Positions 15,582 to 64,000 of a DNA stretch of 64,000 nucleotides are shown piece by piece. The notes beneath the pieces are model-generated. The model ran no database searches. It was given only the letters and a program-made list of their open reading frames with translations, and was not told the DNA's origin. The position numbers were made by a program, and so were the translations under genes. Where the stretch lies: NCBI GenBank assembly GCA_000002435.2, contig CM018792.1. One strand, written 5' to 3'. Source of the stretch: Giardia intestinalis (taxonomy: Eukaryota). Position 1 is the stretch's first letter. Every line of letters starts with the position of its first letter.

Positions 15582-15720
15582 TTTTTACTCTCGAATTAAA
15601 TGAAGTTGAAAAATGTACACCGAAAATGTGTAAACTTATTAATATAATATTGCGCGTTTGATGCCTGTATGGCCCTGTGCCTTTTCTGGCGCTGCCTGTT
15701 GTCAAAATGGCATAGGGTTG

Positions 15721-19077: not shown

Positions 19078-19261
19078 TTTTAAAACATCGCCTGCCACGC
19101 TTACTGCATAATGGATCTTCCTCTTCCGTGTGAGGTAGCACCCTTTCCCCAGGCTCAGACTGAGTCCATGCGCTTCTGCCCCCCAAAGCTTCTGCCAATA
19201 ATATCATCGCAGGTACTCAAAACAGAGGCTGCAAGCCGAGACGAGTAAGTGTAAATGTTTT

Positions 19262-19855: not shown

Positions 19856-19920
19856 GTTTTTTATCCTTCGGTAAACCTGGAGCCTAGGCTTCATGGACAG
19901 AATAGAGCGCAGGAGCCTTA

Positions 19921-20235
19921 TCACTCCTCGACAAGAAAGCGGGCTCCGTTGACCCCGTACGTATTCAAGAGATGAGTAACGTGCTTTGGCGTAATGATGT
20001 ACGGTGGCTGGCTTTTGTTCATAGTACCTTGATGAATCGCTAATTCCAGAAGCTCCGTATAGAGGCTCTCGGTTATCGCATTAAGTATGAAGTAGGGGTC
20101 TGCCCGATCCAGCATACCCTCAGTTGCTCCTGTGTGCTCTGAAGTAAGGCGGGCCTCTCTATCGCAAAGGGCTACCAGCGCGTCTAGTGCTTCTCTGTCT
20201 AAGTACTCTCGCTTGGTAAAATCAGCCACCTGCAT
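19921..20235 (-). CDS. small hypothetical protein (~105 aa)
   Basis: ORF divergent from IleRS. The internal ATG at 20233-20235 is preferred because the track start at 20316 would place the gene over the IleRS 5-prime coding region. An AT-rich element lies upstream. Confidence 0.4.
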   Translation of the reverse strand: MQVADFTKREYLDREALDALVALCDREARLTSEHTGATEGMLDRADPYFILNAITESLYTELLELAIHQGTMNKSQPPYIITPKHVTHLLNTYGVNGARFLVEE

Positions 20236-20254
20236 TGGTGTTTCGGCCTGATAA

Positions 20255-20275
20255 AAAGAATGGAGTAATTTTAAA
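20255..20275. promoter_or_regulatory. AT-rich initiator (AAAAGAATGGAGTAATTTTAAA) abutting IleRS ATG; palindromic AATTTTAAAAT core may serve the divergent gene as well
   Basis: Sits immediately 5-prime of ATG 20276. Its reverse complement lies 20-40 nt upstream of the minus-strand ATG at 20235. Confidence 0.45.
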
Positions 20276-34000: not shown

Positions 34001-35937
34001 TCTTGGAGGCAGTCACCGAGACCGTTGCAATAAGAATCAGGATTCTGCAGAACCGTCTCGTCTGTTGTTCCCTTAAGGTCCGGATTTAAACAGGCCTTGT
34101 GGATGCATGATGTACGGTATTGCACGTCTCCGAGTTCGCTCTTGATAGCATCCTCCACAGTCACAAAGTTGAATGGGTCCTCACAGCTACAGGTAGATGT
34201 GAGCGCAGACAAACACTGTGGGGCCCCCGGATCGTCTATATACATAGTGTGCCCATCAAGAAGCCCGCAATATAGGTTCAGGGGATATTCCGTCTTTGAA
34301 GGATACGTGCAGCCCCTGTGGACAACCAGGGAGCTGTTATAAGCTACCAAATACTGGCTCTTATCTGGAGTCTTACAGTAAAACACGGAGTCAGCGTCAA
34401 CGCCGTATTGCGAACAAGTAGCTCCTTGTACCCCGTTGCAAATCGTGGGAGGAGATGTGGTGGAATCAGAGACGCACGCGGCCGCGGTGCAAGCATCATT
34501 GATCATATAAGCCGCAGGAGGCCGCCGTTCAGTGTTGCACTCGTTGCAGAGCGTCCCCTTCGTGACGCCATCACATTGACAGATCCAGTTTTCTGGCTTA
34601 GATGCGTCTGCGCTGGACGATGAGATAGTGGCTGTGCCGTTGCCACTGCAAACCCAACTGCCACTGATGAGCTTGGTGGGAATGCACCGCATGCTACGCA
34701 ACGTGAAGCCAGAATTACATTGGCAGCCGTTGGATGTGCATTGCCCCGCTCCGCTGCAAGTCTTATTGACGATGGAATCCCAGCACCCGGGCTTGGCGCA
34801 GACGTTTGTGCCGTGAGCCTCATACCCCTCGTGGCACTTACAGCGGTATGCAAAAAGCCCTTCCAGCACACAGTCTCCGTTGTTGCTGCAGACAGTGTTA
34901 TCGGCAACGCAGCTCTTGGCAACGCACTTTCCATTAATCGTAGTACCCCGCTGATTGTCACACACTTCACAATAGTCGCCGCTGGAATAGCTCATCGGGC
35001 ACTGACAGTAGTACGTATTTGGATTCGTAGGGTCTTCGCCGCCAGACACGCATGCTCCAATATCACTGCATGCTAAAGCCCCATCATTCTGTCGACAAGC
35101 GGGTGCGGTACAATGACCATCGGTAAGTTGAACAAAGCCGCTGAGACATCTGCAACTAAACTGGCTCCCGCTGCTCTCACAGACGCCACCAGTTCCACAC
35201 TCAGTTGCTACGCCCGCTTGGGTGGAGACGCAATTCAGCGGGAGACACTTTGCCGTGCCAACAAGCTGGTACGGATAGCCGCAACGACAGATGTAGCCCG
35301 TGGTGAGCTCCCCAGTAAATGGGTGTTGCTGGATATTCTCAACGCACTCTCCACGGCCCTGGCAAGGCTCTGTGTCCTCCCCATCATAGCAGGACATCGC
35401 GACGCAGGCGCGAAGAAGAGGATCAATCTTCCCAAATCTTGGGTCACAGTTCTGGCACTGGGACCCCGTGTGGATCAGATTGCAGGAGCAGATGTACACA
35501 TCAGGTCTGACCCGGTCTGCCTCCGAGGCGCCGTTGAAGATGCAGATCCCCTGACCACTGCAGGGACGCTCCGTGGTCACCCCGCCGGCCTCCTCGTCAC
35601 CATAGCAATACGAAGAGACACAGCGGCCGGAATACTGGTAGAAGCCGACCGGACAGCTTCCGCACTCCCAGGCGTTCTTGCTTTTCAAGTAGAGACACGT
35701 GCCCCTGCCGCCGCACTCCAAGCCATCCTCAATGCAGCTCGGCGGGATGCAGTTCTCCACAAGGTTAACAAATCCGCGGGAGCAACTGCTGCAATCGTAG
35801 CCCGTCCATCCGGGGGCGCAGACGCAGCGGTAGACCTCTCCGATAAGCGTGCAGGTCCCGTGGTCCCCGCACTCATAGCCCGTATCACCGCACGGCGCGG
35901 CCAGGCCGACCGCCAACATAAGAGACACCTTCAGCAT
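31090..35937 (-). CDS. high cysteine membrane protein (HCMP family, 1615 aa)
   Basis: About 12% Cys, with CxxC and CxC repeats and EGF-like spacing throughout. N-terminal signal peptide. Single C-terminal TM (IAGITIAVLVVVGGSVAGVLVWFFLF). Basic cytoplasmic tail, not CRGKA. Confidence 0.85.
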   Translation of the reverse strand: MLKVSLMLAVGLAAPCGDTGYECGDHGTCTLIGEVYRCVCAPGWTGYDCSSCSRGFVNLVENCIPPSCIEDGLECGGRGTCLYLKSKNAWECGSCPVGFYQYSGRCVSSYCYGDEEAGGVTTERPCSGQGICIFNGASEADRVRPDVYICSCNLIHTGSQCQNCDPRFGKIDPLLRACVAMSCYDGEDTEPCQGRGECVENIQQHPFTGELTTGYICRCGYPYQLVGTAKCLPLNCVSTQAGVATECGTGGVCESSGSQFSCRCLSGFVQLTDGHCTAPACRQNDGALACSDIGACVSGGEDPTNPNTYYCQCPMSYSSGDYCEVCDNQRGTTINGKCVAKSCVADNTVCSNNGDCVLEGLFAYRCKCHEGYEAHGTNVCAKPGCWDSIVNKTCSGAGQCTSNGCQCNSGFTLRSMRCIPTKLISGSWVCSGNGTATISSSSADASKPENWICQCDGVTKGTLCNECNTERRPPAAYMINDACTAAACVSDSTTSPPTICNGVQGATCSQYGVDADSVFYCKTPDKSQYLVAYNSSLVVHRGCTYPSKTEYPLNLYCGLLDGHTMYIDDPGAPQCLSALTSTCSCEDPFNFVTVEDAIKSELGDVQYRTSCIHKACLNPDLKGTTDETVLQNPDSYCNGLGDCLQDDHGDYTCFCGPGSTYFKGTCVSNACLTQDPETDATVMCGGLGICALDTYGYWGCVCEYPYFGSGSSCYPIGCGYHDPLDRTTVLCGGEGRGTCVANETHPELATCACNRGFTLINSNYCAPSACTAYGADREGVEPSLSYVCSGIGDCFYNPVTGSYECHCGEGYYATGPYCTLAQCIVVIDAGEAIPGLIGNLYLECGFAGAGTCTSDGCTCNSGYVKTASLSMCVRAGCIDENNVYCGGDHHAACVDKGDGTGFSCVCTAQHVNVNGTCVPKKCVTRDVNGNNVVCGGRGQCIQMWTGYMCACDNNTPAVPSGDSYTCPHPDCCGQVGEDMVVCSDQGSCKETTTGGFCVCNNGYSLVGKSQCIVSECVQTDGNGVTSICGGGECIATNDVHSCACANGFSNVDGRCVHSNCIDTYDGEQIECSGFGKCTAVDSSYKCVCNLGYSPGTEPNRCFSVMCLSTIGDKGYECGGHGKCTYSEEQEEFSCTCESGYKNIDDTSAGYSITYFCVTSGCTTTSEAGQTVCNGGGMCDPTSGRCVCNEGHAGDTCADCADGYIRPPEEYIFKHCMKTTCADSTCGGTGMCVPSLLYNQMVCECADHHTPLDGRCVPCAIDNCETCDVSQLGRACSLCQDGTYLSGDQTQCLPCHADCKTCQGPQSTQCLSCVEGKVHSLNGMGASGCKEECRINVDGCKSCGAMISKTKYCSQCQSQTSVPVNGECKSQATRASECSRYSKGACLACADGYFLYEGGCYETSKLPGRDVCSMASSGSCSYCKIGYSNLAGTCTACKNENCASCNIVTTCDECKPGWSLVNGECVSCAAECESCTQGSPSTCKSCKDEYFASFSFSGDASGPCRPCSDTTPMDGIVGVPGCKYCTLPLTNGTNENPVSVICLTTESAGKMMSTGAIAGITIAVLVVVGGSVAGVLVWFFLFRNRKGPMKKSPRRRFHPDETSTSLLSQDYGSSML

Positions 35938-49033: not shown

Positions 49034-50524
49034 ATGCATACGGGGCCTATTAGTGCCAATGCAGCAACCCGCAATAGCCATAGAAGGCTGCTCATACCGC
49101 TTCCTTCTAACTCTTTTTTACCTCCGCTGCTCTCTCAAAATTGTCTCCAAGCTTTTGTTGCTATGCGCCACGTCAATATAACACCTATTTATAGCGTTTC
49201 TCCCTGCAGTGATAAGGTGCTTCAGGTTTGTACTGAGCCGTGCGTTTCATGCACACTACGTCACGTAATCGACGAGCTTTCGTTTTTGGAGAGTGAATGT
49301 GGCATTAGGCTGGCAGCATCCATTTTTGTCGGGGCCTTGGAAGCATTGGCTTATTTAGCTTGTCTCAGTAGAGTGTGGGGACTAGAGTTAGACATTCAGA
49401 ATATAAATTGGCTGGATATGTTATGCGTAGATGACAGAGGGCAGTGGAAAATAATTGCCCATAAGATGAGTTCTTATCGGGGTGGTCACAAGCCATGCAA
49501 TAGCATATCAGGCACACATACGCCTTCTAATAACTTTCGTACTTGTGATGAAATAGCCCACATGTGTTTACCCGGTATGCAGTCACTGGGACTTATTATA
49601 TTGAATTTACTAGTTGCTGGGTCTCGCATTGACCTAGAGGAAAGTATAACGCTACGAAGTTGGAATAAACTTCAAACGGATATTGCATGCTCCCGAAACA
49701 AACACGAGATTCCTGACCTAAGGCTTTTCATTGATACGCTCAGTATCATATGGGACGAAAACTTCAACCAGCCTGTACATCCATATCACATACTCACGCG
49801 CCTTCTGCCCATTCTTCAGACATACATGAAAGACGAATCTACTAAAAGCGGAGCAGTGGACCCTGAACACAGAAGAAAATCAAAATACTCTCCGCTTATG
49901 CTCGGTGTCTTATCCAAAGACTATGAGCTCGTGCAAAGACACATTTCGTATGCAGGTTGTAGAACAGCATCAGGAATGACAGCCCTTATGATGGCGGCAA
50001 GAGACAATTTTGTAGAAGCCGTACAGATTCTACTTCCCCATGAAGCACACTATAAAACGTTTTTAGGGACTAGATTTGAGAGTAGAACAGCACTGATGTT
50101 CGCAACCCACAACCGCAACTACGACTCCATGCATATACTCTATGAGCAAGAAGCTGGAATCGCTAATGTCTATGGGGCCACATCCTTAATGCGTGCAGCT
50201 CAAAATGGAGATTGTGTAGCAGTTGAGATACTCATGAAGCGCGAAGCAGGAATGGCTAACTACACAGGGTTTACGGCACTGATGAATGGAGCCACAAAAG
50301 GCTTCACCAAAATTGTAAGTTTGCTGCTCCCATTTGAAGCAGGAGGAGTTACAAATGATAAGCACGAATGGGGAAAGGGCCATTCTGCCCTTTCGCTGGC
50401 GGCAATGAATGCTAACAAAGAGGTAGTTTTGTTGTTATATGAAGTTGAGCGACAGTTACTTAAGTCTCGGTGCATATTAACATCCGGAAAAACAGTGATA
50501 GAGGAGCTTATTGAAGGAAAGTAG
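49034..50524 (+). CDS. ankyrin-repeat protein, Giardia Protein 21.1 type (496 aa)
   Basis: At least five tandem ANK repeats in the C-terminal half: G(M/A/F)TALM.AA..N....V..LL. The ~280 aa N-terminal domain lacks kinase catalytic motifs. Confidence 0.75.
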   Translation: MHTGPISANAATRNSHRRLLIPLPSNSFLPPLLSQNCLQAFVAMRHVNITPIYSVSPCSDKVLQVCTEPCVSCTLRHVIDELSFLESECGIRLAASIFVGALEALAYLACLSRVWGLELDIQNINWLDMLCVDDRGQWKIIAHKMSSYRGGHKPCNSISGTHTPSNNFRTCDEIAHMCLPGMQSLGLIILNLLVAGSRIDLEESITLRSWNKLQTDIACSRNKHEIPDLRLFIDTLSIIWDENFNQPVHPYHILTRLLPILQTYMKDESTKSGAVDPEHRRKSKYSPLMLGVLSKDYELVQRHISYAGCRTASGMTALMMAARDNFVEAVQILLPHEAHYKTFLGTRFESRTALMFATHNRNYDSMHILYEQEAGIANVYGATSLMRAAQNGDCVAVEILMKREAGMANYTGFTALMNGATKGFTKIVSLLLPFEAGGVTNDKHEWGKGHSALSLAAMNANKEVVLLLYEVERQLLKSRCILTSGKTVIEELIEGK

Positions 50525-53500
50525 TATAGTTATCTAGTTATGCCAGTTGATTACATGTGTCATACATAACGTGGTAGCCAATAGCTTAATATAATGCTAT
50601 CAATACATATGGTTATCATATTAAGACGCAGGACCTAAATGCTACAGGCGGCCTCAGAAAAAGCTCTCTGAGGGAACAAGAAGTGAGGCGACTAATGCAC
50701 CGAGGATGCTGCAGGCCTCTGTCCACGGAATGCAAACCCATTACTATGCAATTCGCTACCACAGGCTTCTGTTTGCGGTGACACAACTGCTGGGTGTCGC
50801 CACGCTCTGGAAGCTAGTGTACGGGCTCACGTTGTAAGGCCGGCGGACCGGAGGATGCAGGGGCCACAGGGTAGCGACTGACCATCATGGTTCTATAGGC
50901 TCTGCGGCTAGTAGCACAGGGGCAGGGATGCTGCATCCCGGTGATTGGCTCAGGGCCGCACTATCCAATGGGCCGACGACCCTCATGTTGTTTCAATCTG
51001 ACGTGGCCTCCACTGCTGCTCCCGTACGAGTTGGAGAAGGGGCTGGCCCCATCGAATGCGGCAGAGAACAACAGGCGCCCGGCCTTCGGGCGAGGAAGCT
51101 GGGTGATCTCGTCCAGGCGAAGCCGACTCCTCACCGTCCTCTGGGTCCTGCCTCTTCTACCGCCCTGGCACAACATAGCTCGGTAGGGGGCGGCGTGTCT
51201 GCGCTACAGGACGCGTCGTCAAGAAAGAGTGGGCCTGGAGAGACCCGACGGCCACCGCTGGGATAGGCCTCAGAAGCCCTTGGCTGCAGGATACGCTACT
51301 GCCAGGGTCAGTGCAGGCTATGGCTTTGAGGAAGCGCAGGACTGATGGGTGCTATCAGGAAACACCTGGCACGTTCTCGTGTAGAGGGGGACTCAGGCTT
51401 GCGGGCTCGGATGTCTGCCATTTCCGTGTCAAGTTGATGTGACCAGATCAGGGGCAGTGGTCGAGGGATCGATCCACAGGCTCCAGAACAATATGTCGAA
51501 GAACAAGCAATCAGACTGGCGGTGGCTTCGGCAGTGTCGTGGCCCGGGCCTCTTCAGCCGCGCTTGATGGAACCCGACGTTGCGCCAGGCGACGGGACAG
51601 GGCACCGGTCGTCCTTAGAGCATGCAGGAGGCGAGGCTTGTGAGCCCATGGGCGTCTGGCCTGCCAGCTGAGGCCACATCGGTGACGAGGCCCAGGGTGA
51701 TGCAGCGTGGATGACCCTGTGCGCGTGTGCTCTGTGATGACGGGCCTGACGGTGAGTGCAGCAAGGTTATAGGCACGGGCTCTGTCTGGGCCAGGGCCCC
51801 AGAGCTCTTTCTGTCGCAGGGAAGAATAGGGCAGCGCGGTGCAAGGAAGGCATCTAGCAGGATGCTGGGAAACTGACCCGATGTGGCAAATCACGGGCGC
51901 TGCCAAACACGGCGTCTCTTCTCTTAGACAGAAGACAGGCAGAGTGGATGATTGCGGAGGCTGCAGTGTCCGTGGTAGATCGCGGCATCGCAAGGTGGCT
52001 GAGTCTGTGCCGGTGTGTCTGTCCGGGCTCTAAGTGCGCTCTGAGGATCACCTGCTGATGGGCTGGAAGGCCCGAGAAGTGATGCGCTGCCCTTGTCATC
52101 GCGGGCAGCGCCCTGTGGCACGCACTCGAGCCAGCGCCTCCTGGTGGCCAGAAGCAGAGCAGAGGCAGACGGCCGGTCGTGCATCCGTCCAGGCGGCTCA
52201 CTGCGTGTAGAGCGAAGAAGACCACCTGCGCCGCTCGGGTTATTGCTCAGCATCAAGTGCGGATGGAAGGCTGGGCCCGGCAACCAGGGCGCCGACCTGC
52301 ACGCTCCCGTCAGCCATCCCAGGCCGGTCAGAAGCCAGGCTCGACAGGCAGTGCAAATGCCAGGGAAGCCAGCGTGACCATCGGGCCCGCGTTTGAATGC
52401 TAAAAAACTTGGGCAGCGATGGCGACTGTCGTCTTCCTGGGAGGGCGCCTCTTCGCACAGGGTCAGCCGTCCTGGCCCTGCATACTGGGTGCGCGGCTCG
52501 AAGGCGCGCTGTGCTAGTTGTGGACCTGTCAGGCGCTGCAGCCTACGAATAGCACGGACGGATGCAACGGAGTGTCCGCGCAGTGCACTGTCATTGTCCC
52601 AGAGAGCTGTTGTTCTAACCATGCGCCCTACACCGGCTCGGCATACCCCTGCTGCTTCCGCTGCTGGTCTGTCTGCCACTTGTTTATTATAGCGGGGGGC
52701 GCATACGCTTATAGTGTCGTCTAGGCACTGTAGTGGTCTTCTCGGACGGTGCATGTATATTCACATGATGGCCGATGGGTGGAGCGGCTGCCTGATCTTA
52801 GAGCTCTCATTGCAACAAGGCGGGGCGTCGGCTGTCTACACGCCTCTAAGCGAGCCCGCGACCTCTGTGCAGATGCCTGCTCGCCGCGCTCCATAGTGAC
52901 GGCTGTACACCCAGAAGGGGTCGCAGAATCCTCCGCTGTCCTTCGAGGTGGACCACGGCTTGTGCACAGGCTAGCGACGGGGCCTGCGCACCAGTTGCTA
53001 TGGGTCCAGTCTGCCGGGCACCTGGATTACAGTGCACGTCAAGACTGCACACTCGTTTGCATGCTCGCTGCTCGTGTTGGACAGAACTGCGAGGGGTCTG
53101 TCTCTGGCCATCCTCGCCTTAGTGCTTGGCCCTTGATGACACGCCTCAGCAGAGGATGGTGTCTTCTAAGTACTCGGAAGACTATCCGTGCCTGGCGGTT
53201 CCTAGAGAGTCGGTTCGCACAGAAAGCGTAGATGTGCCCGGCGGGCTGGCGGGGTAGGGCTGGGGCTACAGAGACTAGCCATTAGCCCGGATTACAGCAG
53301 GGACACCTGTAGTGCCTCCTCGGCTCCTAAGCGTGGAAAGGCCGTAGAACTTGCAGATGAGTTGGAGGCTGGTTTTTGATTTTATGCATTTGCAGCAGAG
53401 CAGAGTTTACTGAAGGTCCACTTATTCTAAATTCGAGGAGCCTCATCTCCTCCTCACACACGGTGAGATGATCGATTGTAGAGGTGTATTGTGCAAACCG

Positions 53501-55204
53501 GTGGCAGTCAGCGTATATCCAGACGGATACTGCCTGCGTCCTCTTGTGGCAGACCACCACCAGGGCTCCAATCTGCACATCTGTTCTGGCATCTGTCGGG
53601 CAATCATCACCTTTGGTCGAATGATTGCTGTACGTCACACAGCTTGAGCCATCCGTCGACCAGGTGGTGCCATAAGCTCTTGTCCCCTACTTGTCCACCC
53701 GATGCAGACTCTGAGCGCCGCCAGTTGCACTCACGTCTGCACTACTCATCTGGATGCCCCCACTCTTCAAGAGCACATGCCCGCAGCCGATGCTCCGTAT
53801 TACAAGAGGAGCCAGCCGGGCCACTGCGCTGTGCATAGCTCTCCTGGGCGTATTGTTATGCGCGCCCAGCCTTTCCATCTATAAGTCACCACGCAGCTCT
53901 TTCCCACCGTCTCGCGTCCACATGTGCGCCAGCGCCGCCGAGCTTTCGTGGTCTCGAGGGGCCCCTGATGCATGGAGCGCTTGCGCAAAGTCCTTCCACC
54001 ACTGACCCAAGCCGACCCCTCGCAAGATCCTTAGCGGAGTTGCGTCCGAGATGTGTGCCTGCGTTGCTGTCCAGGTGCATGTGCCGGCCCTGGTGCTTCC
54101 CACAAGCTTGCGAGCATCGAGCTGGCCGCTACCGAACCGTATCAGAAGTCAGCACCAGGATGTAGTCCCATCAGTCAGGCTCTGCAGGCTCCCAGAGCTA
54201 CGCATCAAAAGGCCGTTCTTCTTTGGTTGTGCAGCGTGGGGAGATGCACCGAACTACCACACCCTCTCCGTGTGGCGTGGTTTACGACGGGGGACGGGGT
54301 CCCTGTGCTCATGTCTATCTGCCCAGGACGAGTCGCAGCCCGGGTTGACAATGACAAGCGAGCATCGCCCGGCTCCTTGTCAGCGGGTGGGAGATCCCGC
54401 CACCCTAGTACCCACAGCAACGGGTGCCGATCACTGGCAGAGGGACACGACACCCAGGCTCCCGTTCCTTCCACTGATGGTAGCCCACTATGAAGAGCCC
54501 TTTGTCGCCTGCACCAACAACCTCAGGCACTGTGGGTCAGAGCGCCTCCATAGTGGACAGCGGTAGCACTATGATGATCTGGGGTGACAGGAGTCCCGGT
54601 CTATCAACTCAGGAGACAGCACGCTTTGGGCAATGCTTCCCTCCTGTCCAGATCTGGGAGGACTGGCTGCCTTCTGAGCCCACCTGGCACCTTGTCAGGT
54701 GATGGAGTGTCTTAAAGTATTCATTACAAAAGATCAGAAATAGCGCCATGCATTCCCAATAGACCAGAACGTCTCCTAGGCTACTCTATGCTGATTCGCA
54801 CCTTTCATGGACCCTAGCGATCACTGTAATCTTCTCTCGGGATCCCGCAAGGGACTGTCCTTGAGTGCGATTCCCCCACGACAGCCGGGAGTCGCAGACA
54901 TAATCCAAAGGGATGAGAGTACTACAGAGGCTGAGAGGAGAGCGCCGATGCACAGGGGTCCGCAGAGACCCGGTTCGTACAGGGAAGGCGTGGAGGCTGG
55001 CTCTCCAGGGATGTAGAGCCACCAGGAAAGGAGCTGGCAGTGGGGCTTAGGCGCAGCAGAGGCACCCGATCCGTCCTCTGATTGGCCGCGAGGCAGTAGG
55101 CGCATGGGGCGGCATCACCGCTTGTTTTTGGATTTTCTGCTTCCCTGCGCGTTGTGCAGGGGTCCGCAGTGGGCTGAGTATCACAGGCTACACATAGTAG
55201 ATGC
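50525..55204. other. 4.7-kb ORF-poor, moderately GC-rich block without recognisable coding potential
   Basis: The longest ORF is 276 aa with random-looking composition. Both strands are littered with stops. No rRNA 5-prime signature and no TAGGG telomere repeats were found. Confidence 0.5.
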
Positions 55205-55219
55205 GTTTACTACCTAAGT
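55205..55219 (-). promoter_or_regulatory. VSP extended polyadenylation element ACTTAGGTAGTAAAC
   Basis: It lies on the coding strand 2 nt after the VSP TAG stop. It matches the conserved VSP 3-prime element ACTYAGRTAGTRAAY exactly. Confidence 0.8.
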
Positions 55220-55221
55220 AC

Positions 55222-57465
55222 CTACGCCTTCCCTCTGCAGATGAACCACCAGCAGAGGAAGCCGACGAGGCCGGCCACAATGACAACCGCCGCGACAGAG
55301 ATCCCTGCTATGGCACCGGTAGAAAGGCCGCTCTTATTCGTGCTTCCCCCGGTACTTTCACCGTTCATGAGGTAGCAGAGAACGGAGCCACTACCAGCCG
55401 ATGGAGGGGCGCAGCTAGCGCAGTTGGCGACGCCGGTGATGGATCCCCCGTCGCTCTTGTCGCATGCTATACACTTTTCTTTGGACGGGTAGTACCCTGC
55501 AGCGCACACCGTGCACTTGGTGGCGTCGTTCGCATTGCACTCGGAGCACTCAGTGGCGCAGGGAACACACTTCTTAGTGTTACCGCCAGTCTTAGCATAT
55601 CCAGCCTTACACGTGTCGCACTGGTCCTGGCTGGTGCACGTCTTACATCCGGCCGAGCAAGTGATGAGCGCGCCGTTATTCAGCTTGTACCCGTCGGCCG
55701 GAGTCTGACAGGCATCGCTCGCTTCTGCTGCGGCTAAGCAGACGCTCTTTCCGGGGAACTTGGTCGTCTCATAGCAGCCCCCGTTCATACGAAGAAGCCC
55801 GTTGGCGCATTTGTCACAGACACCAGTCCCTTTGGTAGTGCACGTAATAGCCTTTCCGGCCGCCGCCGAGCAGACTCCGTTCTGTGGAAACTGGCCGGCT
55901 TCCTTGCACTTGGAGCAGTAGGCCGTGCCATCGACCGTCAGCTCGCACTTCTCGCAGTTGTTAGCATTTGGCTCGCATCCTGGTTTGCACGTCCCCGTGT
56001 TGCCCTCTCCTTCGTAGCTGAGGGCCTTCTTAGGCTCACAGCTCGTACACCCGTTGGAGTTCCCGTTCGCGCACGTCTTGCACGAGGTATCGCACTTGGC
56101 ACAGGCGGTTTCTTTCTTGTAGTATCCGTCCTTGCAGGTCTCGCACTGTCCTTGCCCGTTGCACAGGAGGCAGTTCTCGACCTCGCACTTCTTGCAGGCC
56201 TTCTTGCCCCCCTCGTTGGTGCCCGCGTAGTAGCCTCCCAGATCTCCGCACGCATCGATGCACTGGCCCGTGGGCGTGAGGGCCTTAGTGCCCTCGCACT
56301 CTGTGCACACCTCCTTGCTTGTCTTCGGCTCACTGCACGTCTTGCAGCCGGGGGTGTTGCACGGCGCCGCAGGGGGGTCGGACTTCTTCATGCACCCGGT
56401 GCCGGCCTCCTCGGGAACGTAGCCCTCAACGCACTCACAAACGCCAGAGGTCTTTTCCTCGTTGGAGTTCAAGGGGCAGCTTTCAACGCACCCCTTCTTG
56501 TTTGGCTGGACCTTCTTCTGGTTTTCGCACGTCTTGCAGGCGACTGCTCCATCGGCGCCCTTCTCGCACGTCGCGCATCCATTGGAGGTCCCCTCGGCGC
56601 ACGCCTTGCACGTCTTCGGCTCAGTGTCGTCGGCGTAGTGGGTGCTTTGATTCTTGCACTCAGTTTCGGTGACGCACGTGCCAGTGTCGCTGCCATTATC
56701 CTTCTTCAGGTACGGCTTGTCGTCCTTACAGGAGGTGCACTTCGCAGCCTCGGTCTTACAGGTCTTGCAACCAGGATCACACGCCTCACAGGTTTTGGTG
56801 CCGCCATTTTTCACGAAGAACCCTTCGGTGCCGGTGCACTCTTCTTCTGTCACGCAGGAGGTGGCTGAATCTGTAGCCGTCTTCAGATACTTACCTTCTT
56901 GGCACGCAGTGCATGTGGCAGCCTTAGTGCCACTAGCTGATAGTTGCTCTGGTTTCTCACAGGTAGCGCACCCAGCCACCCCCGTGTATATCTTATCGCC
57001 AGTAAGTGTTACGCCCGTCGCGTCTCCGCACGAAACAACAGAGTCGTGGGCGTCGTCTGTATCTGCCGGCGGGACAAAGTACTTATTTCCAGCGACAGCC
57101 TCTGTGCACTTACCAGCATCTGCCGCTTGACACATGGCATTGCCAGGGGGTTTTGCTCGTTCATAGCACCCGCCCTTGTACATGAAGGAGTTGCCGTTAC
57201 ATCCTGTACATTTTCCGCCTGCGTGTGTCTTACATACTGCTGTATCAGACGACACATCTGTGCATACCCCGTTGACAGGAGCGCGATCAGCGGGATCTGC
57301 CTTGCATTGAGAGCAATACAATTTACCATCAATCAGAACGTTGCATGCCTCATCGGCACAATTGGTAGTTTGATCTGCACAGGTAGCCGTTCCAGCTTTT
57401 TCTGCTATCTGTGCCGTCCATACAAACTGAAGGATTACCCCCGCGAGAACAAATCTACAGAACAT
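55222..57465 (-). CDS. vsp: variant-specific surface protein (VSP), complete, 747 aa
   Basis: Signal peptide MFCRFVLAGVILQFVWTA. About 11% Cys with many CxxC motifs, and a GGCY motif. C-terminal TM plus invariant CRGKA tail, followed by the VSP poly(A) element. Confidence 0.93.
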   Translation of the reverse strand: MFCRFVLAGVILQFVWTAQIAEKAGTATCADQTTNCADEACNVLIDGKLYCSQCKADPADRAPVNGVCTDVSSDTAVCKTHAGGKCTGCNGNSFMYKGGCYERAKPPGNAMCQAADAGKCTEAVAGNKYFVPPADTDDAHDSVVSCGDATGVTLTGDKIYTGVAGCATCEKPEQLSASGTKAATCTACQEGKYLKTATDSATSCVTEEECTGTEGFFVKNGGTKTCEACDPGCKTCKTEAAKCTSCKDDKPYLKKDNGSDTGTCVTETECKNQSTHYADDTEPKTCKACAEGTSNGCATCEKGADGAVACKTCENQKKVQPNKKGCVESCPLNSNEEKTSGVCECVEGYVPEEAGTGCMKKSDPPAAPCNTPGCKTCSEPKTSKEVCTECEGTKALTPTGQCIDACGDLGGYYAGTNEGGKKACKKCEVENCLLCNGQGQCETCKDGYYKKETACAKCDTSCKTCANGNSNGCTSCEPKKALSYEGEGNTGTCKPGCEPNANNCEKCELTVDGTAYCSKCKEAGQFPQNGVCSAAAGKAITCTTKGTGVCDKCANGLLRMNGGCYETTKFPGKSVCLAAAEASDACQTPADGYKLNNGALITCSAGCKTCTSQDQCDTCKAGYAKTGGNTKKCVPCATECSECNANDATKCTVCAAGYYPSKEKCIACDKSDGGSITGVANCASCAPPSAGSGSVLCYLMNGESTGGSTNKSGLSTGAIAGISVAAVVIVAGLVGFLCWWFICRGKA

Positions 57466-59240
57466 TGGGGTCAGCCGGTTACTAGGAGACGGACAGAACT
57501 ATTAATACATTATTATCAATCTGTGTGATACACAGTAGAGTGTAATACTGGGCACACTTCTGAACGACGTCACGTGAGTGATGAGAACGCCATCCTGTCA
57601 TTCGCGGAGGGCCTCTCATTCTCCCTCGTTATAGACCGTGGCAACAGAGACACAACAGGCAGCTCGTCCGTCTCCGTAAGCATTCCAGGGAGTCCTGCCT
57701 GTCTGTACGAGGAGGTTTACTCTTCCACCAAGGACGGTTTCCGGCTGCTTCCGGTACATCAGTCGTGCCTGGACCGCTAGTCTGTTGACCGCTCGGGATT
57801 TCAGATATGAAGGCTTGGATGTGTCCAGGTTCTGGTGGCGGTGATGGAGTATTCCACGTGGGTTTTTGCAGGGGCGGGTCTTTCTGAAGCATACCGCAGG
57901 CAGATCTGCGATACACTGACCCACTACCATTGACGGGTGCTCTTGCGCTAGTCTTGTATCTGGTTCGCTGATGATCCCCCCTAGACGACATCTTCCGCCA
58001 TCTCTCGGAGAAGCGCGGTCTCAGACCAACCTCCAGTGGAACAACTCATCAGTTCCGCCTGTGTGGCGGGCTTCAGGCTTACCTGCAGGCGTAATCCAGA
58101 AATTTCACGAGTGGGTCTCGTCATTCCTGGCCAGTTCAGAGACGAGGGTTGGTCGTTAATGATATAATAGGGATCTCCCTTCACTTGTATACCAGGAGTC
58201 TTTTGCGTCTCTCAGTCGCTCCGCAGGGGTGTGCTCAGGCTGAGTATGCACGCCGGTCCTTTCGGGGTTCAGGCCTTCTCGTGGACTCTCTGCTCTATCA
58301 GTGGCGCCTCTCCTTGGTCTGCCGCCTTGGTGGGTGTAACTCTGGTCACTGTCCTTTTTTAGATGCTCCCGTCTGTCAGGGGCCGTCATCGGGCTCTCCG
58401 CTGGCTGGGCCTCTCAGTGTCCGGGCAGCTGTGGCTCGAGTCAGGGCTCCCACGGTCGCGGTCACTTGGGTCTCAGTGGGTCAGCTGGTGGGTGAGGCGG
58501 GGTTGGTGGGTGAGGCTGGAGGGCTCTGGTGGGGGCTGAGGCGGGGGGTGTTGTATGTGCCTCTGGATCCGGTGGGCCAGTGGGGTGGTGGGTGATCCCC
58601 TCTCTGTTTGCCAAGGTGGTTGCGTCTGATCCCCAGCCTTCGTTGCACTCCTGAGACAGAGGCACCGACGATCGTGTCGTGTCCCCTGACTGAGCGCCTC
58701 CCTTGGCCCCTGCATGTCTCGGGCAGTACTGCTTCTCTGTTTGACTAGTACGTGAGTGTTGAGGCAGGCCATCGCAGCCTCTCCTGTTGCTCGCTGGTGC
58801 TCTGTGCGGGTCTGCTGAGCCCCTGGCATGCCCTGTCCAGTGCCTCGACGGTAGTTCACCTCGGGCCAGCAGGGGTGTGGATGAGCCTGTGGATGGGATG
58901 GGGTGCTCTCAGGCCTCTAGTGTGATGGCCCTCGAAGACTGGCATGGTGGGGACCGGGTGGGCGGTGTTGTATGTGTCCCTGGTCCGGTGGGCCATGTCG
59001 GGTGATCGCAGCTGTGGTGACTGGAGGCTGTCTATCTGTGACCCATCCCTCTGTGGACTCGGGAGTGCCCTCCGCCCAGGCAACAGTGGTGCTGCTGGGG
59101 CCCTCGCCTGCGGGCGCTGTCCAAAATCTCGCGAGTAAATTCCCGCTCAATTTTTGGCGATGTCCGGAGACGAGGGTTGGTCACGGGCCGTAACGATAAT
59201 CACAGCGGTTGTAAGGAGGAGCTATCTGCGTTCCTCGGCT
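57195..59240. repeat. left arm of perfect inverted duplication (mirror coordinate = 121195 - x); contains VSP 5-prime 270 bp + 1.77 kb upstream
   Basis: Every ORF of 60 aa or more in this arm has a letter-identical twin on the opposite strand of 61955-64000. Examples are 58149..58595(+) with 62600..63046(-), and 58972..59193(+) with 62002..62223(-). Direct base check: 57466-57640 equals the reverse complement of 63555-63729. Identity ends at 59240/61955. The outer limit is set by the window end. Confidence 0.9.
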
Positions 59241-59930
59241 GTTCCGTGGGCGTGCGCACAGCTGGACCTGAAGCGTCGAAGAGCCCGCGAGGACCCGATC
59301 CGCATTATGAATGCAAGATCGTACCTCCGGGGCCCCCAGAGAGCAATCGTGAGTCTCTACTCGGGGGACCACTCCGAAGACGTTTACTCTCTCAGCAGGA
59401 CACACGTGCTGGCTCTGTGGCCAACCGTGTGAGAGCGCCAAGCAACTAACCGAGCACCTGAGAGAAGCAAACGATGACAGACACAGAGTGCTGGGCGACG
59501 ACAAGTTGATCATTCCGGCCCAGTACCGAACCGGACAGCTGCCATGCTCATCCACCAAGGTGCACGCATGATCGCGAGCATCGAGCAGGCTGGGACTGGG
59601 GTCGCGCTCCCCGCTATCAAGGGCCTGAACGCCCTGGTGGGAAGCCCCAGAAGACTCAAGCAACACAGTAGAGCAGGCCCAGAGTAAGGCAGACCCAGAC
59701 CCCGAGAAGGCGAGACGCCGGATAGCAAACAGGGTGAACAACGCGCTGAGCTTCGGGGCAGTTGCTAAGGCTCTCCGCGCCCTTGATGAGACACCCATGG
59801 TAGACATCAAGTCGGAGAAGGCCGACCGCCCTCAGCGCGCTACACCTGTGCGTCCTCCCGAAGGCTACGTTGGCCTTGACTACCCTCCATCGATGAACTC
59901 GACGGGCTGGAGCCGGCAACCGAGGAGGAA

Positions 59931-60676
59931 ATGAGGAAGGCCCTGTTGGGACTCTCAACAAGAAGGCCTCGGGCCGGTCCAGCTCAAGGCGATGAAGCAG
60001 AGCGACAGCTTCGTGAAGTACCTCACGCAGGCATACAACGAGCTGACCACCCACCCCGAGGCGATGCCAGAGGTGATGGCCATGCTCGAGTTCCGGGCGA
60101 TCCTCATCCCGAAGGAGTCCGACGGATACCGCCCGATCGCGATAGGCGAGACGGTGACAAACATCTTCCACCGCGTCCTGCTGAAGGGCTGATCAGGCAT
60201 GCCAACTACCTCTTGTGCGAACAGATCGCCTTCATGCAGAACGCATACGCGGTAGGTGTGAGGAGGGCCCACGAGCTCATCAGCAGGCGGGGATGCACGC
60301 CGTCTCCCTCGACATAACGAACGCCCTCAACTCGCTCCCGAGGGCAGAGGTCGCCAGAGCCCTGAACGAGGCGGGCGTCCCGAAGGTCATGGTCGACCAC
60401 ATCGGGGACTTCCTCGACCTGAGGCACAGCCGGGACGTGAAGTGCGAGGTCTGCGGCGTCCCCCAGGGCGACCCGCTCAGCATGCTCCTCTTCTGCATGG
60501 CCATCGAGCGCCTCCTGAGACGCCTCAAGGAGAGAGGCATCCCCTTCCTTGCCTATGCGGACGACATCGTGGCGTTCCACGACGAGGCCTACCCGGCAGG
60601 TGTGATAACACAGCTGGCCATGGGCCTGACGATCAGGAGCGACAATGCAAGTCCACCATGGCGGGCGAGGAGGTGA
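59931..60676 (+). pseudogene. reverse transcriptase domain remnant (frameshifted)
   Basis: RT motifs 0, 1, 2, 3, A, B-prime/C (YADD) are spread over three reading frames (ORFs 59931.., 59992..60192, 60215..60676). Confidence 0.8.
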
Positions 60677-61219
60677 CCTTCCTCAACCACCCGGTGTCCC
60701 CCACTCCAGCAAGCCTTACCCCAAAGGCCATCGCAGGTGCTGAGACTGCCCTGAGGAAGATCGAGAACGCCCCAATAACCACCCACCAGAAGCTCATCCT
60801 GCTGTCACTCTGTGTGATCCCGATGGTGAACTACGCCCCCCTGGTCGAGATAACATCGGACAAGGCGGACTACGAGGAGCTGACAGACGTCGCACAAGGC
60901 TTCAGCAAGCTAGCCAACAGAAGCTGCGATCGCCTGGTCGACTTCCTGGCGTACCCGAAGGAGAAGGGCGGCCCGGGCCTGCTCATGCTGGGACTCTACC
61001 ACGACGAGCTGCGGAGGGCATGGACTCCCTGGACGTCAACAAGGGGGCCAGAGACCCGGTGGAGCTGTCGGTGGAAGGCCAGGCACTGCAAGGGAAGGGG
61101 GCCTACTTCAACCGCCTCCTCACGCGCACACACCAGCTTTCGGACAGAGCGGCGGCGTGCTGACCGAGGAGGAAAGGGCCCTGAAGCAGAGAGATGGCTC
61201 GATCATGGGGCAGACAAGA

Positions 61220-61689
61220 GGCACCTGCCCGGGCTGCCACACGGCAAGGACCCTCGACCGCGACATGATCGTCACGTGCCTGTACCTCCGCGTCTCGGGG
61301 AAGCTCAACCGGAGCTGGAAGTCAAGACCCACAGCCACCTCAGCGACCAGAACCAGAAGCCCGACATCTGGCTCGTCGACAAGTGCAAGGCAGTGGACGT
61401 GCGTGTCATCCAGCCCCGCCAGATGGATGCCTACTACAACGAGAAGGCCAAGAAGTACAGGGACGGGACGCTCCCGATCATCTACGGGACAGATGGATCC
61501 CTCCACCCCAAGTCCAAGGGGCACCTCGAGGAGCTCCACGTGGACCTCTGTCCGGGCTGCCTTCGCCATCGCCTACATGGCTGCAGAGGCGAACGAGCAC
61601 CTGACGGAGCTGATCAGACGCGACCGGGCCGAAAGCCTGGTCACCCAGAGCGACCGTCTCCTGTCATCCTACTTCTGACAACCGAATGA
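61220..61689 (+). pseudogene. Cys-His motif + restriction-enzyme-like (PD-D/ExK) endonuclease remnant
   Basis: CPGCH...C is in one frame. KPDIWLVDKCKAVDVRVIQ...EKAKKY is in another. The ORF ends at 61689 and is followed by a ~265 bp tail with no poly(A) tract. Confidence 0.6.
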
Positions 61690-61954
61690 ATCCATCCCCG
61701 GGACCCGACGACAACGACCGAGAAGGGGCAAAGACTGGACACACAGCCGAGTTGAATCCCAACCAGAAGAGAAAGCCCGCTAGCTGCTGCTGATCTGTAT
61801 GGACAGTATTGAGAATGACAACAAAGACCAGAGCTTCACTCACCGTGAAGGGAGAACAAGGAGAGGCGCTCTAACAGGCCAGCGAACCTGCAGGACGGCT
61901 TGATCTCTGAAAGAACCGATGTGCACATCCAGTCTGAGTGTACTCCTGTAGAAT

Positions 61955-64000
61955 AGCCGAGGAACGCAGATAGCTCCTCCTTACAACCGCTGTGATTATC
62001 GTTACGGCCCGTGACCAACCCTCGTCTCCGGACATCGCCAAAAATTGAGCGGGAATTTACTCGCGAGATTTTGGACAGCGCCCGCAGGCGAGGGCCCCAG
62101 CAGCACCACTGTTGCCTGGGCGGAGGGCACTCCCGAGTCCACAGAGGGATGGGTCACAGATAGACAGCCTCCAGTCACCACAGCTGCGATCACCCGACAT
62201 GGCCCACCGGACCAGGGACACATACAACACCGCCCACCCGGTCCCCACCATGCCAGTCTTCGAGGGCCATCACACTAGAGGCCTGAGAGCACCCCATCCC
62301 ATCCACAGGCTCATCCACACCCCTGCTGGCCCGAGGTGAACTACCGTCGAGGCACTGGACAGGGCATGCCAGGGGCTCAGCAGACCCGCACAGAGCACCA
62401 GCGAGCAACAGGAGAGGCTGCGATGGCCTGCCTCAACACTCACGTACTAGTCAAACAGAGAAGCAGTACTGCCCGAGACATGCAGGGGCCAAGGGAGGCG
62501 CTCAGTCAGGGGACACGACACGATCGTCGGTGCCTCTGTCTCAGGAGTGCAACGAAGGCTGGGGATCAGACGCAACCACCTTGGCAAACAGAGAGGGGAT
62601 CACCCACCACCCCACTGGCCCACCGGATCCAGAGGCACATACAACACCCCCCGCCTCAGCCCCCACCAGAGCCCTCCAGCCTCACCCACCAACCCCGCCT
62701 CACCCACCAGCTGACCCACTGAGACCCAAGTGACCGCGACCGTGGGAGCCCTGACTCGAGCCACAGCTGCCCGGACACTGAGAGGCCCAGCCAGCGGAGA
62801 GCCCGATGACGGCCCCTGACAGACGGGAGCATCTAAAAAAGGACAGTGACCAGAGTTACACCCACCAAGGCGGCAGACCAAGGAGAGGCGCCACTGATAG
62901 AGCAGAGAGTCCACGAGAAGGCCTGAACCCCGAAAGGACCGGCGTGCATACTCAGCCTGAGCACACCCCTGCGGAGCGACTGAGAGACGCAAAAGACTCC
63001 TGGTATACAAGTGAAGGGAGATCCCTATTATATCATTAACGACCAACCCTCGTCTCTGAACTGGCCAGGAATGACGAGACCCACTCGTGAAATTTCTGGA
63101 TTACGCCTGCAGGTAAGCCTGAAGCCCGCCACACAGGCGGAACTGATGAGTTGTTCCACTGGAGGTTGGTCTGAGACCGCGCTTCTCCGAGAGATGGCGG
63201 AAGATGTCGTCTAGGGGGGATCATCAGCGAACCAGATACAAGACTAGCGCAAGAGCACCCGTCAATGGTAGTGGGTCAGTGTATCGCAGATCTGCCTGCG
63301 GTATGCTTCAGAAAGACCCGCCCCTGCAAAAACCCACGTGGAATACTCCATCACCGCCACCAGAACCTGGACACATCCAAGCCTTCATATCTGAAATCCC
63401 GAGCGGTCAACAGACTAGCGGTCCAGGCACGACTGATGTACCGGAAGCAGCCGGAAACCGTCCTTGGTGGAAGAGTAAACCTCCTCGTACAGACAGGCAG
63501 GACTCCCTGGAATGCTTACGGAGACGGACGAGCTGCCTGTTGTGTCTCTGTTGCCACGGTCTATAACGAGGGAGAATGAGAGGCCCTCCGCGAATGACAG
63601 GATGGCGTTCTCATCACTCACGTGACGTCGTTCAGAAGTGTGCCCAGTATTACACTCTACTGTGTATCACACAGATTGATAATAATGTATTAATAGTTCT
63701 GTCCGTCTCCTAGTAACCGGCTGACCCCAATGTTCTGTAGATTTGTTCTCGCGGGGGTAATCCTTCAGTTTGTATGGACGGCACAGATAGCAGAAAAAGC
63801 TGGAACGGCTACCTGTGCAGATCAAACTACCAATTGTGCCGATGAGGCATGCAACGTTCTGATTGATGGTAAATTGTATTGCTCTCAATGCAAGGCAGAT
63901 CCCGCTGATCGCGCTCCTGTCAACGGGGTATGCACAGATGTGTCGTCTGATACAGCAGTATGTAAGACACACGCAGGCGGAAAATGTACAGGATGTAACG
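61955..64000. repeat. right arm of perfect inverted duplication (reverse complement of 57195-59240)
   Basis: See the left arm entry. It includes the second VSP start. Confidence 0.9.
63730..64000 (+). CDS. vsp: second VSP copy, 5-prime partial (first 90 codons identical to VSP at 55222..57465)
   Basis: ATG at 63730. Translation MFCRFVLAGVILQFVWTAQIAEKAGTATCADQTTNCADEACNVLIDGKLYCSQCK... is identical to the first VSP. It runs off the window. Confidence 0.85.
   Translation, partial: MFCRFVLAGVILQFVWTAQIAEKAGTATCADQTTNCADEACNVLIDGKLYCSQCKADPADRAPVNGVCTDVSSDTAVCKTHAGGKCTGCN

Follow-up and report, generated by a model that had tools for sequence, protein, structure and literature searches.

Two VSP genes around a retrotransposon relic

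The window, by which is meant the whole 64,000-nt stretch of Giardia intestinalis DNA analyzed here, ends in a large inverted repeat whose arms carry two VSP genes arranged head-to-head around the remains of a non-LTR retrotransposon (Table 1). Base-by-base comparison of each position x with position 121195-x showed 57195-59240 to be the exact reverse complement of 61955-64000 over 2046 nt, with 0 mismatches, and a repeat search of the window returned the same two arms. Chance cannot account for a perfect inverted repeat of this length. The first mismatch is located at 59241/61954, from which complementarity is lost inward; the visible arm length is set by the window end at 64000, and the outer arm boundary lies beyond the window. 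Four pairs of ORFs are letter-identical between the arms: 57616-57930(-) and 63265-63579(+), 57629-57991(-) and 63204-63566(+), 58149-58595(+) and 62600-63046(-), and 58473-58859(-) and 62336-62722(+). Within the 64-kb window, no third copy of the arms is present, and a tandem-repeat search of 50-64 kb found no tandem repeats. These data agree with the sequence-only reading of this DNA, which had claimed exact reverse complementarity for 57195-59240, arm ORFs mirrored on the opposite strand, VSP start codons at 57465(-) and 63730(+) and at least 270 bp of coding sequence per arm (271 nt are visible in each, and identical).

Table 1. Features of the palindromic VSP locus (positions within the window)
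Feature	Position	Strand	Basis
GC-rich (~60%) DNA with no genes, on the downstream side of the left VSP; may be outer arm	50662..55221		composition; colinear with P15
Complete VSP gene, 747 aa, CRGKA tail; left member of GL50803_00d112801/00112801	55222..57465	-	Pfam VSP, E=6.6e-141
Left palindrome arm, visible part	57195..59240		0 mismatches to reverse complement of 61955-64000
VSP-proximal upstream DNA, 615 bp (mirror 63115-63729), with CAATGTT initiator context at ATG	57466..58080		sequence
Repeat module X, left arm (mirror 62533-63114)	58081..58662		79% identical to both flanks of the element in DH L001
Left terminal inverted repeat, innermost left arm	59087..59240		alignment A1; inverted matches to right ends of DH copies
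Dead non-LTR retrotransposon (psiRT; presumably GilD/Genie-2-like), ~3.0 kb including terminal inverted repeats	59087..62108	+	86-89% DNA identity to five DH copies
Palindrome spacer: unique asymmetric core, 2714 bp	59241..61954	+	no inverted partner; single copy in window
Reverse transcriptase/endonuclease ORF remnants, all three + frames; YADD box ~60570	59710..61780	+	RVT_1, three-frame translation, tblastn
Right terminal inverted repeat, innermost right arm	61955..62108		alignment A1; inverted matches
Right palindrome arm, visible part	61955..64000		reverse complement of left arm
Right VSP copy, first 271 nt (90 codons), cut by window end	63730..64000	+	exact reverse complement of 57195-57465

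The two ATGs are 6264 bp apart, and each is separated from the inner edge of its arm by 1775 nt. The left gene matches PF03302, has the C-terminus ...FLCWWFICRGKA and displays the features of the VSP family, with cysteine-rich CXXC repeats, a transmembrane segment near the C-terminus and the CRGKA tail; its N-terminus is 100% identical to the product of 63730-64000 (tblastn). Among the 213 Giardia VSP homologues found, the best cluster representative is 88% identical, and the exact WB sequence belongs to that 90% cluster: P0141 (KAE8304498.1, KAE8304499.1 and XP_001704560.1), identical to the window VSP at 747/747 residues. One 747-aa WB sequence is thus borne by two consecutive GenBank accessions, KAE8304498.1 and KAE8304499.1. 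The identity, which the sequence-only reading had followed into the VSP bodies as far as the window end, goes on at the protein level, while at the DNA level it is followed to 64000.

The chromosome 4 pair d112801/112801 has been tabulated with divergent orientation ("<- ->"), a length of 747 aa, a distance of 6264 bp and a psiRT in between (Xu et al., 2020, Table 2; PMC7000408). Because the protein is identical to both consecutive accessions and the distance is the same in the window and in that table, the locus is the published head-to-head identical VSP pair GL50803_00d112801/00112801 of chromosome 4 of Giardia intestinalis WB. In the earlier catalogue, 112801 was entered as a single gene (vsp169, 747 aa, chr4), and the same Inr motif, CAATGTT, was given for it (Adam et al., 2010, supplement; PMC2996952). 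Exact-product look-ups in the sequence collection returned no record of the window VSP, P0141, the WB chr4 VSPs P0017 and P0087 or the WB RT protein P0124.

The spacer element and the inner edge of the palindrome

The sequence-only reading rightly placed two VSP genes with identical 5' ends and upstream DNA head-to-head around a common center; this center is a dead non-LTR retrotransposon. A Pfam search assigned RVT_1 to 60215-60676 (E=1.8e-15), and the best matches of the RT remnants are Giardia proteins (from DH, WB and P15) that bear the name "reverse transcriptase/endonuclease". According to three-frame translation and tblastn, the RT-homologous segments are spread over the three + frames with stops between them, and the homologous "proteins" of DH and WB likewise contain out-of-frame stretches. 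As candidates for the C-terminal CCHC motif and restriction-enzyme-like endonuclease of GilD/Genie 2 elements, the translation contains CPGCH...C and KPDIWLVDKCKAVDV, where no domain model matched, and the C-terminal region of a longer RT protein (P0136) gives a 37% tblastn match to the element. Its identity to the five copies from isolate DH (L001, L002, L003, L006 and L007) holds over the full length. These copies share the ends of the element (59084-59089 and 62106-62111), with the exception of L002, whose match starts at 59105. The flanks of L003, L006 and L007 contain neither VSP genes nor inverted duplicates; the right flank of L002 is not judgeable, as the contig ends there.

The element is presumably of the GilD/Genie-2 type, an assignment by features. 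GilD is reported to have been described by Arkhipova and Morrison in 2001 as a dead non-LTR retrotransposon of Giardia; Genie 2, reportedly described by Burke and coworkers in 2002, is another, reportedly with terminal inverted repeats (TIRs) of up to 172 bp. The likeness extends to a degenerate, frameshifted ORF with RT and a putative C-terminal endonuclease, dispersed non-telomeric copies and TIRs of ~150-180 bp. The window element differs from them in that its TIR arms are 100% identical and run outward into kilobases of duplicated host DNA.

Alignment A1, which comprises both ends of all element copies, links these TIRs to the inner edge of the palindrome. Every copy with both ends has TIRs, of 55-170 nt by inverted-repeat search and 157-184 nt by BLAST (152-154 nt in the window), with arm-to-arm identities of 86% in L001, 84% in L002, 98% in L003 and 87% in L006. 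The perfect identity of the window arms ends at the very column where left-type and right-type ends part in all copies, followed by ~20 nt of degenerate terminal-repeat similarity and then by the unique element core. Palindrome identity thus stops at the inner edge of the TIR because the left and right ends of the element diverge there in every copy. The break at 59240/61955 had been correctly placed; however, what had been taken for unrelated sequence is this degenerate similarity and the retroelement core, and the break is no arbitrary duplication junction, the inner 152 bp of each arm being the element's own terminal inverted repeat.

Three haplotypes (a, b and c) of a variable TIR patch can be told apart: a/a in the window, b/b in L003, a/c in L001 and b/c in L006. 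Since both ends carry the same haplotype in some copies and different ones in others, conversion between TIR arms appears to take place in some copies. In L001, in which the same element lies within a DH tail-to-tail VSP pair, arm identity is 99% next to the VSP and drops to 86% within the TIR. The outermost ~33 nt of some DH copies are missing from both ends of the window element.

The natural ends of the element also bear on whether the palindrome could be an assembly artefact, either a fold-back chimera of long reads or a real structure whose perfect identity was created by consensus polishing. Near-identical arms can indeed look fully identical after polishing of a long-read assembly, d112801 is found only in the 2020 PacBio assembly while 112801 stands as a single gene both in the 2007 assembly and in the list of Adam et al. 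(2010; PMC2996952), and identical pairs have been reported to end contigs prematurely (same study). In addition, the VSP and the 10 arm or spacer ORF products tried, among those of at least 100 aa, yielded no match in independent assemblies. A chimera would, however, be spacerless or joined arbitrarily, whereas here the arms meet a 2.7-kb core at the ends of a retroelement which is found with those same left and right ends at five other loci. Moreover, inverted VSP pairs have been demonstrated by cloning (vsp1267; Adam et al., 2010, PMC2996952) and are present in WB, DH, P15 and G. muris, and the assembly was built at 200x coverage and compared with optical maps (Xu et al., 2020; PMC7000408). 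An artefact is therefore very improbable: the pair is real, ordinary for Giardia and already known.

Upstream DNA, outer DNA and the assemblage E locus

Between the VSP and the element, the arm is composite. The VSP-proximal DNA (57466-58080) has no second match in the window and the sequences compared. Module X matches L001 flanks 295-880 and 4058-4641, with a weak match in the left flank of L002, and is unlikely to be VSP-promoter DNA since it borders the element in a tail-to-tail VSP pair of DH as well. The two genes had been proposed to have identical promoters and 1.77 kb of ORF-free upstream DNA. The upstream DNA is indeed identical and 1775 nt long, but ~580 bp of it (58081-58662) are an element-associated repeat, and ORFs of 104-148 aa are present; a Pfam search with two of the upstream-arm ORF products gave no match. 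A retroelement origin of the 1.6-kb upstream arm as a whole was considered and rejected, the only indications being 114 nt of similarity at 70% identity plus an internal repeat of 62 nt.

This composition is relevant to the proposal that the palindrome is a selected regulatory device, the shared center of which would coordinate or silence the two VSP copies, either by controlling them in both directions or through antisense or double-stranded RNA made from the dead retroelement. Identical 5' flanks are expected to confer the same regulation on both copies, the palindromic layout is kept at the corresponding P15 locus, and VSP expression is under epigenetic or post-transcriptional control (Adam et al., 2010; PMC2996952). 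Nevertheless, the promoters of Giardia are short, the 1.8-kb flank stems mostly from repeats or the retroelement, divergent transcription yields no hairpin RNA, and the spacers of other pairs vary: some contain a NEK gene, some a psiRT, and others have no annotation (Xu et al., 2020; PMC7000408). Such a device is thus highly unlikely. As both copies encode the same protein, one-VSP-at-a-time expression is unbroken, and there is no need to assume a regulatory role.

Downstream of the left VSP, the GC-rich DNA of 50.7-55.2 kb contains no RT or VSP remnants and no Pfam or Rfam matches (tblastn, Pfam and Rfam searches). The segment 50662-55221 is colinear at 60-70% with a region of P15 (assemblage E) which forms palindrome arms there: the syntenic P15 locus is itself palindromic, with arms (14628-17217 and 18899-21491) of at least 2.6 kb, 98% identical, enclosing a single VSP and no RT element. 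The Logan short-read contigs inspected at this locus (L004 and L005, standing for 23 contigs) end exactly at 50691, and exact-pattern scans of JGI metagenome contigs for the outer-boundary and invariant TIR sequences gave no match.

As the DNA that makes up the P15 arms is, in WB, the GC-rich gene-free stretch situated downstream of the left VSP, the WB arms may run from ~50662 to 59240. It is possible, though less likely than not, that the WB palindrome is an old structure under concerted evolution and not a fresh duplication, with arms of perhaps ~8.6 kb each (~20 kb in total) that have grown inward by double-strand-gap repair, thereby doubling the VSP. Such growth could be anchored on two inverted homologies, the old GC-rich arms outside and the TIRs inside. 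If so, the TIRs of a dead retrotransposon would have a say in the choice of antigen genes that become duplicated, and arm-to-arm conversion would shape a portion of the VSP repertoire.

Origin of the arms and comparison with known systems

The locus is, with good probability, best explained as the published VSP pair with a dead GilD/Genie-2-type element as its center and arms equalized by intrachromosomal recombination between inverted repeats. The order in each arm is VSP gene, 1.6 kb of upstream DNA and TIR of the dead element, the 2.7-kb core being the spacer. Judging from the sequence, gene conversion or gap repair between inverted repeats, bounded by the retroelement repeat, is the most likely mechanism: each arm would have served as the template for gene conversion or double-strand-gap repair of the other, by which the two were made or kept identical. 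Copying would stop inward at the TIR, because inverted homology ends there, and its outer limit would lie beyond the window. The outcome would be two copies of one antigen gene sharing their 5' flank. Comparable centers recur in WB: a psiRT lies within 4/7 head-to-head pairs (Xu et al., 2020, Table 2; PMC7000408), and the unique spacer of pair vsp162 (111933/111936) has 2725 bp (3847 - 2x561; figures from Adam et al., 2010, PMC2996952) vs. 2714 bp here. Perfect identity fits one very recent duplication and ongoing conversion equally well. The sequence-only reading had deduced recent duplication or homogenization from zero divergence, and this deduction is supported. Its remark that palindromes of this size are hotspots for fold-back recombination is general background; with a 2.7-kb asymmetric spacer, this structure is far less apt to form hairpins or cruciforms than a truly spacerless palindrome.

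In Tetrahymena, yeast, Leishmania and human DUP-TRP/INV-DUP rearrangements, palindromic duplications are known that started from short inverted repeats. In a comparable manner, the pair could have arisen by a single recent fold-back without ongoing conversion, in which a break by the element allows the TIRs to anneal within one strand and the 3' end to prime a copy of its own flank; the upstream DNA and the VSP would be copied in inverted orientation until a second template switch, and the arms would be identical because the event is young. The inner boundary at the TIR is consistent with this scenario, as is the absence of the same outer ~33 nt at both element ends, as if one junction had been copied across. 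It is also consistent with the element forming the center of one DH tail-to-tail pair and of 4/7 head-to-head WB pairs, where a psiRT lies between the genes (Xu et al., 2020, Table 2; PMC7000408). However, annealed TIR arms should keep their old divergence (84-87% identity in L001, L002 and L006); since those of the window are 100% identical, mismatch correction or conversion must be added. Furthermore, the orthologous P15 locus is palindromic without the element, and no RT is annotated in the 12 tail-to-tail WB pairs (Xu et al., 2020, Table 2; PMC7000408). A single fold-back is thus rather unlikely. For the last two reasons, a retroelement TIR is not required for VSP palindromes and may only mark the end of homology.

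Inverted identical VSP pairs are an established organization of Giardia antigen genes and a known cause of assembly breaks, and as this pair is already tabulated, the catalogue gains nothing by its confirmation. What is added is that the inner edge of the palindrome is an inverted repeat intrinsic to the dead central retroelement, and that the syntenic locus of another assemblage is likewise palindromic with a different center. Neither point is mentioned in the VSP-pair literature covered, which lacks two relevant original papers.

With its identical ORFs (in the visible DNA and the accessions), inverted orientation, unique spacer of a few kb and flanks identical up to an abrupt divergence, the pair is a member of the identical inverted VSP pairs of WB (PMC2996952; PMC7000408). 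Unlike the 14 pairs described in WB by Adam et al. (2010; PMC2996952), it was not recognized as a pair at that time, and its 5' flank identity of 1775 nt is longer than the 158-729 nt of those pairs. Its ORF-to-ORF distance is the second-largest in the table of Xu et al. (2020; PMC7000408), with 6264 bp vs. 2.5-3.8 kb for most. Similarly, Giardia muris has seven identical VSP pairs, head-to-head or tail-to-tail, with pseudogene-bearing spacers as in WB; these spacers differ in containing NEK, ankyrin and zinc-finger remnants, in a genome with very few retrotransposon sequences (Xu et al., 2020; PMC7641422).

What this locus touches on is whether VSP pairs of this kind are recent duplications or old structures homogenized by gene conversion, a question that bears on the evolution of the VSP repertoire. 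The ampliconic palindromes of the human Y chromosome undergo arm-to-arm gene conversion. Together with the duplications seeded by inverted repeats (Tetrahymena rDNA, yeast, Leishmania and human DUP-TRP/INV-DUP), they share with the Giardia pair long arms of near or full identity, a unique spacer and short pre-existing inverted repeats at the inner junction, a likeness that amounts only to an analogy in mechanism.

Geometry and anatomy of the palindrome

The symmetry described by the sequence-only reading was reproduced in full. Positions x and 121195-x are complementary at every base from 57195 to 59240, the first mismatch falls at 59241/61954 with complementarity lost after it, and the ORFs of each arm reappear unchanged on the opposite strand of the other. 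A repeat search returned the same two arms, about 2.7 kb apart, and no third copy was found within the window. In each arm, 1775 bp separate the VSP ATG from the inner edge; the unique sequence between the arms amounts to 2714 bp. The parts of the arm which follow one another inward from the ATG are listed in the table, the innermost being a terminal inverted repeat (TIR) of the element that occupies the centre. Derivation of the arm from this element was considered and rejected, a 114-nt patch being the sole exception.

Features of the palindromic VSP locus, in window coordinates
Feature	Position	Strand	Description
VSP ORF	55222-57465	-	747 aa; full Pfam VSP match, E=6.6e-141; CRGKA tail
VSP start codons	57465 (-), 63730 (+)		6264 bp between ATGs
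VSP-proximal DNA	57466-58080		615 bp; first part inward from ATG
Module X	58081-58662		582 bp; 79% identical to both element flanks in the DH contig L001
Segment between module X and TIR			about 425 bp; includes a short internal repeat
Element TIR in left arm	59087-59240		152-154 bp
RT-domain ORF	60215-60676	+	RVT_1 match, E=1.8e-15; includes YADD box

The central retroelement and its ends

The DNA past the symmetry break had been taken for unrelated sequence; it proved to be a dead retrotransposon, with an RVT_1 match and five related copies in isolate DH. Segments homologous to reverse transcriptase (RT) and endonuclease regions are spread over all three plus-strand frames from about 59710 to 61780, and their stitched translation matches Giardia proteins only (from DH, WB and P15), several of which are annotated 'reverse transcriptase/endonuclease, putative' and which are themselves partly out of frame. 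The DNA of the element shares 86-89% identity with the five DH copies (L001, L002, L003, L006 and L007) along about 3.0 kb, with sharp match edges at 59084-59089 and 62106-62111, except for L002, in which the left match starts at 59105. TIRs are present in every copy with both ends available, measuring 55-170 nt by repeat search and 157-184 nt by BLAST, with an arm-to-arm identity of 84-98%. Arkhipova and Morrison reportedly described, in 2001, a 'dead' GilD retrotransposon family of Giardia, and Burke et al. are said to have noted, in 2002, inverted repeats of up to 172 bp in Genie 2 copies. The element fits this GilD/Genie 2 family, a name assigned here by features; it agrees with the known family on the defining features compared, namely RT domain, degenerate reading frames and TIRs, and carries a possible endonuclease motif.

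The plus strand of the retroelement is markedly richer in A than in T (AT skew 0.25-0.47). This skew runs about 1.1 kb past the 3' boundary of the element into the right arm (62109-63250; mirror 57945-59086), where the DNA barely resembles the element in sequence.

When both ends of all element copies are aligned, the perfect identity of the window stops at the first column in which, for every copy, left-type ends differ from right-type ones. The inner palindrome edge is thus the point where inverted homology intrinsic to the element runs out, and no arbitrary breakpoint. This assignment is supported by the vsp162 pair (111933/111936), which also contains a dead retrotransposon (psiRT) and for which the published numbers give a unique spacer of 3847 - 2x561 = 2725 bp, compared to 2714 bp in the window. 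An assembly chimera is unlikely, since the arms join an element, present at five other loci, at its natural left and right termini; moreover, structures of this kind have been cloned and occur in four genomes, and the assembly was checked against optical maps. Polishing could nevertheless have erased a few real arm-to-arm differences.

Within the otherwise almost invariant TIR, the same alignment revealed a hypervariable patch of about 30 nt (columns 144-175; window 59178-59212 and its mirror). This patch exists as three discrete haplotypes which are shuffled between the left and right ends of different copies: a/a in the window, b/b in L003, a/c in L001 and b/c in L006. These pairs indicate that conversion between the TIR arms has taken place in some copies, among them L003, which has no adjoining VSP. 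In addition, an outer segment of about 33 nt (GTTTACTCCACCCACCGGTTGCTTCCGGTGG...) is found in L001 (881-914 and 4024-4056), L003 (8543-8576 and 11642-11674) and at one end of L006 (3489-3519), whereas both window ends, L006 on the left and L007 on the right lack it; the element thus has 'long' and 'short' termini. The lack of this segment at both window ends would be expected had one junction been copied to the opposite side.

The surroundings of the DH copies differ. The entire contig L001 (1-4773, AHGT01000170) consists of two tail-to-tail VSP genes around a copy of this dead retroelement, and its arm identity declines stepwise from the VSP ends toward the element (99%, 97%, 95% and 86%, the last in the TIR). 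In WB, psiRT is annotated in head-to-head pairs only (Xu et al., 2020; PMC7000408); besides the window pair, these are 50229, 111933/111936 and 119706/119707. The flanks of L003, L006 and L007 are ordinary, non-inverted and non-VSP, so a palindrome is not generated in every case; L002 runs into its contig end on the right.

From these comparisons and those with assemblage E below, we favour a mechanism in which recombination between inverted homologies, by gene conversion or gap repair, would both make the arms identical and keep them so, with homology limited on the inner side by the TIR. One recent fold-back duplication, seeded by the TIR, would account equally well for the inner boundary but needs an extra correction step to produce identical TIR arms, and we regard it as less likely.

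The orthologous assemblage E locus

The syntenic locus of the assemblage E isolate P15 (L008, contig ACVC01000162) was reached via a conserved ankyrin gene (window 49034-50524). It contains a large palindrome with arms at L008 14628-17217 and 18899-21491, at least 2.6 kb long and about 98% identical, the right arm extending up to the locus end, some 375 bp before the contig stops. Within the 1681-bp spacer lies one frameshifted VSP, oriented like the left WB copy, but no RT; TIR-seeded fold-back is not required at this locus. The P15 arms are colinear with a GC-rich, gene-free part of the window (50.7-55.3 kb) at 60-70% identity, compared to about 83% for the neighbouring genes. This stretch (50662-55221) covers 4.5 kb with a GC content of about 60%, in a genome with about 81% coding sequence, and neither a gene or RNA family nor any remnant of a VSP or RT could be recognised in it. 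The Logan short-read contigs of WB-like isolates inspected for this locus (L004 and L005, representing 23 contigs) stop exactly at 50691, which places a repeat boundary at about 50662. It is thus possible that the WB arms extend over about 8.6 kb and that the palindromic state is older than the assemblage A/E split. The locus may even be, although this is less likely than not, an old palindrome maintained by conversion and expanded up to the retroelement TIR. A regulatory or dsRNA role of the arrangement found no support in the evidence examined and is very improbable.

Relation to known VSP pairs

The window VSP is identical (747/747) to a protein from G. intestinalis WB C6 (KAE8304498.1 and KAE8304499.1, consecutive accessions of one sequence, XP_001704560.1 and XP_037902107.1). 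This protein is a member of the cluster represented by VSP AS10 (AAN52113.1), the best representative in a large protein search, at just 88% identity to the window VSP. AS10 is identical to the WB protein over residues 1-494 and about 66% identical over the last ~250, a mosaic pattern suggestive of recombination or conversion of segments among VSP genes. Outside the palindrome, a 1615-aa ORF (31090-35937, minus strand) gave tblastn matches with many VSP queries at 31147-32508 and is probably a high-cysteine membrane protein (VSP-like) gene.

For the WB reference genome, Table 2 of Xu et al. gives 19 pairs of duplicated VSPs, including, on chromosome 4, d112801 / 112801, oriented '<- ->', with 747 aa, 6264 bp and psiRT between (Xu et al., 2020; PMC7000408). 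Since gene size, orientation, distance and content all agree, the window is this published locus. GL50803_112801 had been entered as a single gene, vsp169 (747 aa, chromosome 4, initiator CAATGTT) (Adam et al., 2010; PMC2996952); the sequence at the window ATG is ccCAATGTTctg. The same study reported 14 identical inverted VSP pairs, 4 head-to-head and 10 tail-to-tail, whose flanks stay identical until they diverge abruptly, and cautioned that pairs of this kind interrupt assemblies and may in part have been overlooked (Adam et al., 2010; PMC2996952). In the other head-to-head pairs of that study, identity stops some 150-200 nt beyond the VSP stop codon. Seven identical inverted pairs are known in G. 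muris (PMC7641422). The locus is therefore an already known member of the set of identical inverted VSP pairs, with the same measurements in the literature. The TIR as inner boundary and the palindrome at the orthologous P15 locus go beyond the literature compared and represent an incremental addition to it.
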